DNA from: an uncultured bacterium
Lineage (GTDB): Bacteria > Acidobacteriota > HRBIN11 > JAKEFK01
NCBI GenBank assembly: GCA_963777505.1
Contig: CAVZQN010000004.1
Coordinates: 992,001 to 1,056,000 of the forward strand
DNA length: 64,000 nucleotides
Direction: 5' to 3'
In this document: in pieces, positions 6,477 through 9,467 of the stretch
Position numbering within the stretch: position 1 is the first letter of the stretch
Layout: every line of letters starts with the position of its first letter
Translations under genes and position numbers: made by a program
The notes under the pieces: model-generated
What the model saw: the letters and a program-made list of their open reading frames with translations, nothing else
The model's database searches: none
What the model was told of the DNA's origin: nothing

Positions 6477-6502
6477 ACCACGGAGTCACGGAGATCACGG
6501 AG
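6477..6502 (+). repeat. ACCRCxRAG-type short intergenic repeat
   Basis: ACCACGGAG-TCACGGAG-ATCACGGAG; related copies at 12528, 14778, 18019, 29096, 34289, 37810, 46858, 51828, 58284. Confidence 0.65.
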
Positions 6503-7517
6503 TTCTTTTCCACTTTCGATAGCTGAGAAAGAGTGTCGCCGCAGAAAATGTTACCGGACTAATAATTGTGAACAGTTTCCCTTTTTGATTGATCCGCTTC
6601 GATTCGGAAATGGCTTTCAGCAGAACCTGAGTTCGTTCGATGCTGCCGCCGTCATTCCAACGAAGATCTAGAATAAGCCGCTCCGCAGAAACTTCTTCAA
6701 TTGCTTTGAAGAGTCTAATTGTAAATGCAAGAAGGGGTTCTTCTTCTTTTTCCCGGGATGCATCGTTGTAATTCACATACATAGTTTTTGATTCGGGAAG
6801 AAATTCAAACCAGTATGGATCTGTGAGGTTTTTCAGCCACAACGGAATACCAGGCTGATTCTTCATTATCTCCGGTGCGTTGAAGTTTTCCGCAGGCACC
6901 GGTTTCAAAGTAATTAAATGTTTATTGTGATCGCTGTCTTCTACTGTAAAGGTTGCTGTTGAAGTATCGCTAATGATTCCAACGCCGGACAATATTTCCG
7001 GTAGCAATAAATATTGAGGAAAGATTCCATGGAATCCGAAAGGGCTGTCCAAAGGTAAGAGGGGTTCAATCTCTTCTTTCACTTTTTCAATTGGTGTTGA
7101 ATTGATTTGTACGATTTTCATCCCTGTGTATTTTGAAAAAGGTGAAGAAGCTGCAACGATGAAAAGGCCATCCGGAGCCGACCACAATTCAAGTGGAAAC
7201 TTCAATGGATAACTTTGGCCATCAAAAGGAAAGAAAATTCCAGTATGACCATCTCCGACCTGCGCAATGAGCTTCGCAAACTCCAGTGGAATCTGTTGTG
7301 GCTTTAATTCAGGCAGTTTTCGGTCCAACGCGTTCGCATTGAGTAGAAATTGTTCTTTGCTGATGGTGTTGTAAAGATTTGCATGCCTTAAATCCAATTG
7401 CTGAATCATAAAATGTAAATCTTCGCGCCATTGCGTTGTTGCCAGTGGCTGTGCAGCATTGATTGGGAAAACATAACAGATGAAAAATATCAGCAGTACA
7501 GGCTTAAGATAATTCAT
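6495..7517 (-). pseudogene. S41 peptidase-like secreted protein, C-terminally truncated
   Basis: Signal peptide, DGHT, LILDLRWNDGGS, TFSAA; ends 13 residues after TFSAA inside a repeat, without the GEPT segment that normally follows. Confidence 0.65.
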
Positions 7518-7622
7518 CTCCTATTAGACTGGCGACGAGATAAATGGTTGATTCAAACGGTTTTGTCTTATAGATCCGGGTATGTGTTAGGAAGGGTATG
7601 AATAGATGTTTCGCATCCAATC

Positions 7623-7955
7623 TTATTTTTTATCCACAGGAAGCCCATTCTTCTTCCATTCGTCAAATCCGCCATAAAGTGGATGTACATTCTTCCAGCC
7701 TTTTTCCAGTAGTTCCTGCGCTACACGAGCGCTTGAGGCTTCATGACTTCACGTACAGTAGCTGACTACTACTTTATCTTTCGGGATTTCTGCAAGATGT
7801 TTTTCTACTTCATCGGCTGGAACACGAATCGCACCAGGCAGTTTCTCATCTGATTCGCCCCAAGCTTTCGGATTCCGTGTGTCGATAAAGGTAAACGGCT
7901 CACCTCGATCCATTCGCTCCTTAATTTCATCAACAGTAATTCGTGTCGGTATCAT
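7623..7955 (-). CDS. Rhodanese-domain protein with in-frame UGA, probable selenoprotein (YCT-U)
   Basis: MIPTRIT..FIDTRN..LPGAI..VVSYCT-TGA(7749-7751)-SHEASSARVAQELLEKGWKNVHPLYGGFDEWKKNGLPVDKK-TAA(7623-7625); the rhodanese C-terminal signature lies in frame after the UGA. Confidence 0.85.
7715..7738 (-). promoter_or_regulatory. Candidate bacterial SECIS hairpin
   Basis: CCU-caa-GCGCU-cgugu-AGCGC-AGG; apical loop starts 22 nt after the UGA, G in second loop position. Confidence 0.6.
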
Positions 7956-8040
7956 ATCTTTCAAATATATGCCTGAAAAATAAAAGCGATTGGCTTCTTC
8001 TTGATCAATCCAAACGTGGGATTTCAAACGTATAACGCAA

Positions 8041-8080
8041 TGAGTGAGGACCCCAGCACTCATGACTCAGTACTCAGCAC
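8041..8080. repeat. Heptamer tandem repeat (CAGCACT-type)
   Basis: cagcact-catgact-cagtact-cagcac, preceded by the inverted remnant tgagtgag. Confidence 0.55.
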
Positions 8081-8099
8081 AAAAAACTAAGGAGAGAAC

Positions 8100-9467
8100 A
8101 TGACAATTAAGTTGTTCATTTACCGTTTTTTCTTTGGGATGATGGCTTTGCTAACCAGCGCATTTGTAATGGCATCGAGCCACAGTGAAGCTCCAGGAGT
8201 CGGGCGGATACCCAGGTCCGACTGTACCGATGTTTATGCTTTTCGAAGCCCTGATGATCCAAATACAGTTACCATCATTGCCAATTACATTCCTTTAGAG
8301 GAACCAAATTCGGGACCTAACTTTTATCAGCTTGACGAACTTGGCCGCTACGAAATCAACATTGACAATAATCAAGATGCAAAAGAAGACATTAGTTTCG
8401 AATTTACATTTCAAACGAACATCAAGAATCCAAATACGTTCTTGAGTTTCCTGCCCGGAATCGATTCGCTTACAAGTGCTTCTTACAACATGGAACAAAG
8501 CTATTCTGTCGTGATGGTTCGTGGAAAGAAAAACCGTACGACTTTGACAACCGGAGCGATCGCACCTCCACCACGCGTAGGACCGGTAACAACTCCGAAT
8601 TATTCACCCCTGGCATTGAATGCAGTTTACACAGTTGGGACGAACATAAAAGTATTCGTTGGGCAACGTGATGATCCATTCTTTGCTGATCTTGCAGCGA
8701 TATTCGACGGTCTTACAATTCGCGAATTACCAGGAAATGCCGGTGGCGGTGTTGATGGTTTGGGCGGTTTTAATGTTCACTCGATTGCGATTCAAGTACC
8801 GATCGATCAACTAACCAGAAATAACACAATTCCAAGCGATCCAGCGGATCCGGCTGCGATTATGGGCTTTTGGTCCGATTCTTATTTGCCAAAAAGGATC
8901 GACGGCAATGGCGGCGGAAAATTGCGTCAGGTTTCTCGTCTTGGCTCACCGCTTGTAAATGAAGTTGTCATACCCTTAGGCGACAAGGAAAATTGGAATG
9001 CATCGGATCCGAAAAACGACGCACAATTTTTATCTTACGTTACCAATCCCGAACTAGCGACTCTACTTAATGCTATCTATGGCATCAGCGTTCCACCAGC
9101 ACCTCGAAATGATTTAGTAGAAGTCTTTTTAACAGGGGTAACAGGATTAACGAAAGATCCAAACGTAGTGCCATCCGAACAGTTGAGACTCAATGTTGCA
9201 GTTCCTGTTACAGCAACTCCGAACAGACTCGGTGTGCTGGGTGGTGATCTTCAAGGCTTTCCAAATGGAAGAAGACTCGCTGATGACATCATCGATATTT
9301 CTTTGAGAGCCGTCGCAGGTGTTCTTGTTCCGGGTTTTGATATTGCACCGAACAACCAGTTAGGGGATGGAATCGATGCAAATGATCTTCCGTTTTCCAG
9401 TACGTTTCCGTATCTGGCTGATCCGCATGATCCGTTAACACATACGCATCATCCGACACAGCCGTAG
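8100..9467 (+). CDS. DUF4331 domain-containing secreted protein
   Basis: Signal peptide then SSHSEAP, DVYAF, GQRDDPFF, QVSRLGSPLVNEV, GFPNGRRLADD, FPYL. Confidence 0.9.
   Translation: MTIKLFIYRFFFGMMALLTSAFVMASSHSEAPGVGRIPRSDCTDVYAFRSPDDPNTVTIIANYIPLEEPNSGPNFYQLDELGRYEINIDNNQDAKEDISFEFTFQTNIKNPNTFLSFLPGIDSLTSASYNMEQSYSVVMVRGKKNRTTLTTGAIAPPPRVGPVTTPNYSPLALNAVYTVGTNIKVFVGQRDDPFFADLAAIFDGLTIRELPGNAGGGVDGLGGFNVHSIAIQVPIDQLTRNNTIPSDPADPAAIMGFWSDSYLPKRIDGNGGGKLRQVSRLGSPLVNEVVIPLGDKENWNASDPKNDAQFLSYVTNPELATLLNAIYGISVPPAPRNDLVEVFLTGVTGLTKDPNVVPSEQLRLNVAVPVTATPNRLGVLGGDLQGFPNGRRLADDIIDISLRAVAGVLVPGFDIAPNNQLGDGIDANDLPFSSTFPYLADPHDPLTHTHHPTQP

Follow-up and report, generated by a model that had tools for sequence, protein, structure and literature searches.

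A UGA codon at 7751..7749 of the minus strand, inside a gene of an uncultured member of the Acidobacteriota, is very probably decoded as selenocysteine (Sec), and the gene would accordingly encode a selenoprotein rhodanese. The gene lies in a stretch of 64,000 nucleotides, which is referred to below as the window. Insertion of Sec at this codon had been proposed in an initial annotation of the window, and the proposal is now supported by conservation of the TGA among homologues, a hairpin associated with the Sec-encoding forms, and a complete Sec machinery in the genome.

Reading frame, protein and conservation of the probable Sec codon

The features of the gene, as predicted here, are as follows.

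7623..7955, minus strand: coding sequence of the rhodanese selenoprotein, 110 aa, with the start codon ATG at 7955..7953, an internal Sec codon and the stop codon TAA at 7625..7623
7749..7751, minus strand: in-frame UGA read as Sec, residue 69 of the 110-aa protein (residue 105 when counted from the upstream ATG)
7956..8063, minus strand: upstream in-frame extension beginning with the ATG at 8063, which gene callers use for a truncated ORF of 104 aa

Conventional ORF calling with genetic code table 11 yields a minus-strand ORF at 8063..7749 that terminates at ...VVVSYCT-TGA. If this TGA is read through, 41 more in-frame codons follow, SHEASSARVAQELLEKGWKNVHPLYGGFDEWKKNGLPVDKK, up to the TAA at 7625..7623, and the Sec codon becomes part of the motif SYCTUSHE. 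The read-through protein matches the Pfam Rhodanese domain (PF00581, gathering score 22.2 bits) from model position 1 to 101 of 102, with 56.6 bits and an E-value of 3.9e-15, whereas the ORF that is not read through covers model positions 1-68 only. A match that both exceeds the gathering score and spans the whole domain is thus obtained solely when the TGA is read through.

The ATG at 7955 corresponds to the start of the orthologues (MEATRVT...), which begin at M37 of the long form, and 30 of 38 public predictions that end just before the Sec codon are exactly 68 aa long. The extension at 7956..8063 is covered by no homologue, the alignment of the NCBIfam model NF041203 to the long form does not start before residue 40, and the segment is probably a 5′ leader rather than coding sequence. 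A promoter and terminator scan at the gene returned one promoter-like site overlapping the start codon, no terminator, and nothing exceeding shuffled sequences. The window protein is predicted to be a cytoplasmic, single-domain rhodanese that carries neither an N-terminal extension nor a signal.

Conservation of the TGA was examined at several evolutionary distances. With the read-through protein as query, 40 related genomes gave 12 non-self matches at E <= 1e-16, each with one TGA; ten of these loci (L023-L032) were examined, and in each of them the TGA falls in the same column, within the motif YCTUP[SND]E or FCLUQNE. One of the ten, L030 from an unpublished genome (G035), contributes to this count and to a CG-to-GC compensatory change described below, and to nothing else. 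A locus from the same genus as the window (L043) also has TGA in this column (FCAUPNE), and a more distant match (L037) has TGC (YCNCPNE). Among the 13 genomes of the organism's class in the collection no close orthologue was detected, the best match being 47% identical. Close homologues were found in species-representative genomes, at 28 loci with 62-76% identity over all 110 residues, in metagenome-assembled genomes labelled Pyrinomonadaceae, Blastocatellia, Chloracidobacterium or Acidobacteriota. The codon in the Sec column is TGA in 26 of them and TGT in the other two, although these counts, like the others given here, overstate independence because the sequences are related. Downstream of this column the frame is open and conserved in all 28. 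Residues E72, A76, A79, G86, L93, G96, W100 and G104, all past the column, are invariant among 33 aligned sequences, and together with the completion of the Pfam domain beyond the TGA this indicates that the downstream frame is under protein selection.

A public protein collection gave 656 matches at E <= 1e-10, and the best 120 listed were classified by what they show at the Sec column.

Full length, Cys at the column (mostly YCTCPHE): 72
Full length, Trp at the column: 5
Full length, Gly at the column: 3
Full length, Ser at the column: 1
Ending exactly at ...YCT, one residue short of the column: 38
Unclassified: 1

Within these 120, the 68-aa proteins are the closest relatives, with 78-84% identity across the first 68 residues. 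The entries with Trp (5) or Gly (3) may represent a TGA that a gene caller translated under another code, and not a genuine substitution. The initial annotation had described an ORF ending at YCT-TGA, followed by 41 codons of rhodanese sequence, with the UGA standing on a Cys column; each of these points was borne out, the last of them by the 72 proteins among the best 120 listed that have Cys there and by the existence of YCxCP[HN]EASSARVA forms. The span it gave, 7623-7955, holds exactly the gene with its stop codon, and homologues of both kinds it had named for comparison, with TGA or with TGY at the column, were found.

The existence of Cys forms with TGT or TGC at the column raises the question of a pseudogene, since one substitution would suffice to turn TGY into TGA by chance in a Cys-type rhodanese and to leave the 41 downstream codons as a decaying remnant. 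We consider this highly improbable. The same TGA is shared by 26 of the 28 close homologues, by all ten loci of the relatives and by L043; every TGA-bearing homologue retains an open and conserved frame beyond it; and the codon is followed by a hairpin that is specific to Sec forms and shows compensatory changes (see below).

An independent sample bears on the codon itself. Public runs were screened with words sampled from 7400-8300, none of the runs holding more than 17%, and four of them (X1, X2, X4 and X10) were compared; X1 gave nothing, and the codon at 7749-7751 was covered by X10 only. This run, a soil RNA library from another study, yielded a contig of 151 nt over 7648-7797 with about 96% identity to the window. 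None of its 6 differences falls at 7749-7751, and the TGA is unchanged. In the two contigs obtained from X10, 6 of 7 differences are synonymous, including the sole one downstream of the UGA. What the contig documents is that a near relative sampled in a different study has this TGA too; it is not evidence of translation. An assembly or sequencing error that replaced a true TGC or TGT is hardly conceivable, given that this independent contig of about 96% identity has the same TGA and that the TGA is common to the orthologues.

Downstream hairpin and Sec machinery

A SECIS-like stem-loop is predicted immediately past the UGA, with the following elements.

7715..7738, minus strand: SECIS-like stem-loop (RNAfold, 45 nt from the UGA, -8.6 kcal/mol)
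7732..7728 with 7722..7718, minus strand: upper stem, GCGCU paired with AGCGC, 5 bp
7727..7723, minus strand: apical loop, CGUGU, 5 nt
7738..7736 with 7717..7715, minus strand: lower stem, CCU paired with AGG across a 3-nt bulge

Published rules for bacterial SECIS (bSECIS) elements specify a loop of 3-9 nt, an upper stem of 4-16 bp, a distance of 16-37 nt from the UGA to the loop, a minimum free energy of no more than -7.5 kcal/mol, and a G as the first or second loop nucleotide, usually with G or U after it (PMC13188914, section 5). The window hairpin agrees with every rule: its loop is 5 nt long with G at position 2 and then U, its stem has 5 bp, the loop lies 21 nt from the UGA and the energy is -8.6 kcal/mol. 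The upper stem begins exactly 16 nt past the UGA. These results confirm what had been noticed in the initial annotation, namely a hairpin GCGCU-cgugu-AGCGC 16 nt after the UGA, located at 7732..7718, with an apical G of the bacterial SECIS kind at a suitable distance.

The 66-nt region does not fold better than shuffled sequences (z = 0.26, with 113 of 200 shuffles folding as well), so that thermodynamics alone gives no support and reliance is placed on conservation. A scan of 7400-8200 against Rfam gave two chance-level matches and no SECIS family. The consensus fold of an alignment of 10 sequences is exactly this stem, and compensatory changes are seen at two pairs: pair 21-33 changes from CG to UA in L028 and from CG to GC in L030, and pair 24-30 changes from CG to UA in the window. 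The bases joined in both variable pairs are the third ones of their codons. The window uses GCT for Ala and GTA for Val, whereas among the 28 Sec forms that carry SARVA, 27 have GCC for Ala and 27 have GTG for Val; the two synonymous deviations of the window pair with each other.

A comparison of Sec and Cys forms points in the same direction. At least 4 consecutive pairs are present at the hairpin site in all 36 Sec forms but in 12 of 83 Cys forms, a contrast that is suggestive rather than a clean test because it is confounded by kinship, by low identity and by the way in which the Cys forms were selected. Eighty of the 83 were collected by a metagenome scan with a pattern requiring Cys and served solely as a control set; most of these metagenome forms are just 38-51% identical to the window protein, and the SARVA peptide is kept in one of the 83. 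All 36 Sec forms have G at loop position 2 with U or G after it, and the loop-forming Arg codon in them is exclusively CGT or CGG.

The predicted element resembles bacterial SECIS elements of the E. coli fdhF type in being a stem-loop in the coding region just past the UGA, and it agrees with the bacterial consensus in having a small apical loop, 21 nt from the UGA, whose first positions include a G with U or G after it (PMC13188914, section 5). It differs from the fdhF type in the very short stem conserved in this family, 4-5 bp, and its lower stem (CCU/AGG) is unconserved across the rhodanese family.

The genome has the genes needed for Sec insertion. The assembly to which the window belongs (5.23 Mb in 14 contigs, 95.9% complete) contains a tRNA-Sec (69.6 bits, gathering score 47; called by ARAGORN as tRNA-SeC with anticodon tca) as well as selA (564.6 bits), selB (400.4 bits) and selD (349.5 bits), all of which exceed their curated cut-offs. 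The set selA/selB/selC/selD that the initial annotation had expected of this organism is therefore complete. In addition, the selD gene (L017:1390-2463, minus strand, on contig C1 of the same genome) contains one in-frame TGA (...KSGGUAGKLSP) and is itself a selenoprotein gene. Nine of the 32 window ORFs of at least 250 aa, all of which look intact, end in TGA; the codon is thus an ordinary stop in this genome, and a recoded genetic code is not the explanation.

Sec insertion competes with release factor 2, and the UGA might mainly terminate translation, either with a functional 68-aa product or with read-through by a near-cognate tRNA (Trp or Cys) independent of the Sec machinery. The Trp or Gly found at the column in 8 of the best 120 public predictions could be taken in favour of this reading and might reflect other decoding assumptions. 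The 68-aa fragment, however, would end before the active-site loop, with the helix and two strands of the fold missing as well, the hairpin obeys bSECIS rules of the SelB type, and a complete Sec machinery is kept in the genome. Taken against these observations, termination or near-cognate reading appears quite improbable.

Under the favoured reading, Sec insertion, SelB with Sec-tRNA(Sec) would bind the small hairpin 16 nt downstream of the codon, inside the S-A-R-V-A codons. This binding would recode the stop, and the ribosome would continue for 41 codons to the TAA, giving a product in which a loop joining the central strand to the active-site helix holds an invariant Cys67-x-Sec69 pair.

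Active site and relation to known rhodaneses

An AlphaFold2 (AF2) model based on an alignment of 33 sequences has a mean pLDDT of 92.6 and a pTM of 0.85. It predicts a strand at 62-66, a coil at 67-72 (CTUSHE) and a helix at 73-84, so that the candidate nucleophiles lie between the central strand and the helix of a rhodanese alpha/beta fold. The top Foldseek matches are all rhodanese domains, the best with TM scores of about 0.79-0.80 (3tp9 at 0.79), followed by BH2092, Alr3790, a persulfide dioxygenase-rhodanese and CoADR-RHD. None of the 33 sequences departs from Cys at 67 or from Sec/Cys at 69, and Y66 is invariant or nearly so.

Alignments indicate that two more residues separate the central strand from the helix than in ordinary rhodaneses, and the residue assigned to the catalytic position depends on how this difference is accommodated. 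The HMMER alignment to 3tp9 introduces a two-residue gap and places Cys67 on the catalytic Cys, whereas the ungapped HMMER alignment to 6mxv places Sec69 there. Similarly, when two ordinary rhodaneses (L034 and L040) were aligned manually, anchoring on the helix put Sec69 in the catalytic column and anchoring on the strand put Cys67 in it. The model favours, but does not settle, an arrangement in which Cys67 occupies the canonical position and Sec69 lies two residues further on (+2).

A two-centre site is proposed for this pair. Either Sec69 or Cys67 would accept sulfane sulfur, or selenium, in the form of a persulfide or selenopersulfide, which the partner residue would resolve through a selenenylsulfide. 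The chemistry would be of the sulfurtransferase or persulfide-reductase type, with a nucleophile more reactive than that of Cys-only rhodaneses. The fold is shared with the Cys rhodaneses GlpE, PspE and YgaP and with the fusions to persulfide dioxygenase or CoA-persulfide reductase (3tp9, 5ve3, 3ict and 5hbo; TM 0.65-0.79), and the NCBIfam models for GlpE and PspE match the window protein weakly. As in single-domain Cys rhodaneses, the nucleophile would follow the central strand and precede the helix; unlike them, the window protein has a loop two residues longer with two candidate nucleophiles, one of which is Sec.

Rhodanese selenoproteins have been catalogued since 2005 (PMC1088965; PMC1976440), and a rhodanese-like selenoprotein form 3 with the motif CxU is listed with credit to Zhang & Gladyshev 2005, Bioinformatics 21:2580 (PMC13188914, PMC9312934). 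The window protein shares with this form, and with the NCBIfam family NF041203, a single rhodanese domain in which Sec stands two residues past an invariant Cys (YC-x-U), together with the alternation of Sec and Cys at the same column. Forms 1, 2 and 4 (UxxS, UxxG; the 'rhodanese-related sulfurtransferase' of surveys of the Sargasso Sea and of an Olavius symbiont), which are computational predictions of putative function, likewise have a rhodanese fold with Sec in the active-site loop (PMC1088965, PMC1976440). Their listed motifs start with Sec and show no Cys two residues before it, whereas this preceding Cys is invariant in the window family. A UxU variant is also reported (PMC1976440).

By far the best NCBIfam match of the window protein is the equivalog model NF041203 (rhodanese_LYCAU, 'rhodanese-related (seleno)protein'), with an E-value of 2.8e-30 over model positions 22-126; about 20 positions at the start of the model have no counterpart in the protein. 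The match, in which U was treated as C, reaches 104.6 bits, below the curated cut-off of 115 bits, and the Y-C-x-U motif of the family is present as SYCTU. Nine other members of the 110-aa subfamily, comprising Sec and Cys forms, score 91.7-102.6 bits and all stay under the cut-off. A stand-alone Sec-rhodanese at L027:1495-1932 (minus strand) comes just below it at 114.6 bits; this protein has a hydrophobic, signal-like N-terminal stretch, MMKILLLALILFAPVVAPAQ, and may be an exported form. The window protein, with the motif SYCTUSHE, differs from L027 in having no N-terminal extension.

Judged by these matches, the window gene is of the catalogued CxU kind and lies just outside the curated family boundary, a position consistent with the many 68-aa records. 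The predicted signal-less 110-aa CxU subfamily is common in soil Acidobacteriota, and scores just below the NF041203 cut-off imply that this subfamily of soil-bacterial selenoproteins is under-counted. The word 'hidden', which the initial annotation had applied to the selenoprotein, holds with respect to annotation: gene callers report a fragment of 104 or 68 aa, and 38 of the best 120 public predictions end right before the Sec codon. It does not hold with respect to kind, the CxU rhodanese type being already catalogued.

Gene context, domain fusions and significance

Neighbourhoods were compared at 28 orthologue loci of Acidobacteriota (L044-L071), about half of which share a row of genes on the same strand, as exemplified by L059:31-4195.

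Position 1: molybdopterin oxidoreductase, 14 of 28 loci
Position 2: GAF-domain protein, 14 of 28 loci
Position 3: pirin, about 30 nt upstream, 15 of 28 loci
Position 4: Sec-rhodanese
Position 5: class I SAM methyltransferase, 4-31 nt downstream where its ORF does not overlap the rhodanese, 15 of 28 loci

None of the molybdopterin oxidoreductase, GAF-domain, pirin and methyltransferase genes of this row is present in the window, and context therefore gives no function there. The neighbours in the window are a divergent, full-length DUF4331 protein at 8100-9467 (plus strand, 467.6 bits) and a 340-aa ORF at 6495-7517 (minus strand) that reaches 21.1 bits for Peptidase_S41 against a threshold of 24.

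The same-genus genome G001 contains no close orthologue, its best match (43% identity) being part of a fusion protein, and the closest relatives of the window protein, which stand alone and are 62-76% identical, carry the labels of another class (Blastocatellia or Pyrinomonadaceae). Lateral transfer and lineage-specific loss are both possible explanations that would fit this distribution.

Sec-rhodanese domains also occur fused to membrane proteins. With the motif YCTUP[SN]E, the domain forms the C-terminus of a DedA/VTT membrane protein of about 317 aa (Pfam VTT_dom plus Rhodanese) at L023 (1486-2436, minus strand), L024, L025, L026, L028, L031 and L032; the fusion occurs in each of the 6 other genomes from the same family, as well as in one more from the phylum. 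A full-text literature search returned no paper on a selenoprotein rhodanese with DedA. A Na+/H+ exchanger (PF00999) with a C-terminal Sec-rhodanese was seen at L029:115-1833 (plus strand, FCLUQNE) and, in the same-genus genome G001, at L043:220-1842 (plus strand, FCAUPNE). A search of the organism's own genome with the window protein detected no TGA-bearing fusion with a Na+/H+ exchanger.

A broader reading that joins a distinct subfamily missed by the NCBI model, a Cys67/Sec69 relay and sensors on transporters is offered tentatively, and we think it somewhat doubtful as a whole. If it were true, a signal-less 110-aa CxU subfamily would be widespread in soil Acidobacteriota, with the conserved gene row at about half of its loci, and the longer loop would set Cys67 and Sec69 as a pair able to form a selenenylsulfide. 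In place of a sulfur carrier, the protein would then be a redox-active relay for persulfide or selenide, which might supply the methyltransferase encoded next to it, and the Sec module on DedA/VTT and Na+/H+ exchanger proteins would be a redox or sulfur sensor on transporters.

General knowledge of selenoproteins is unchanged by the present gene, and nothing in it would surprise a specialist. For the organism, the predicted protein would add one selenoprotein to its selenoproteome, and for the family it would provide a clean natural example of a minimal SECIS element that is held by paired synonymous codons within a conserved peptide.
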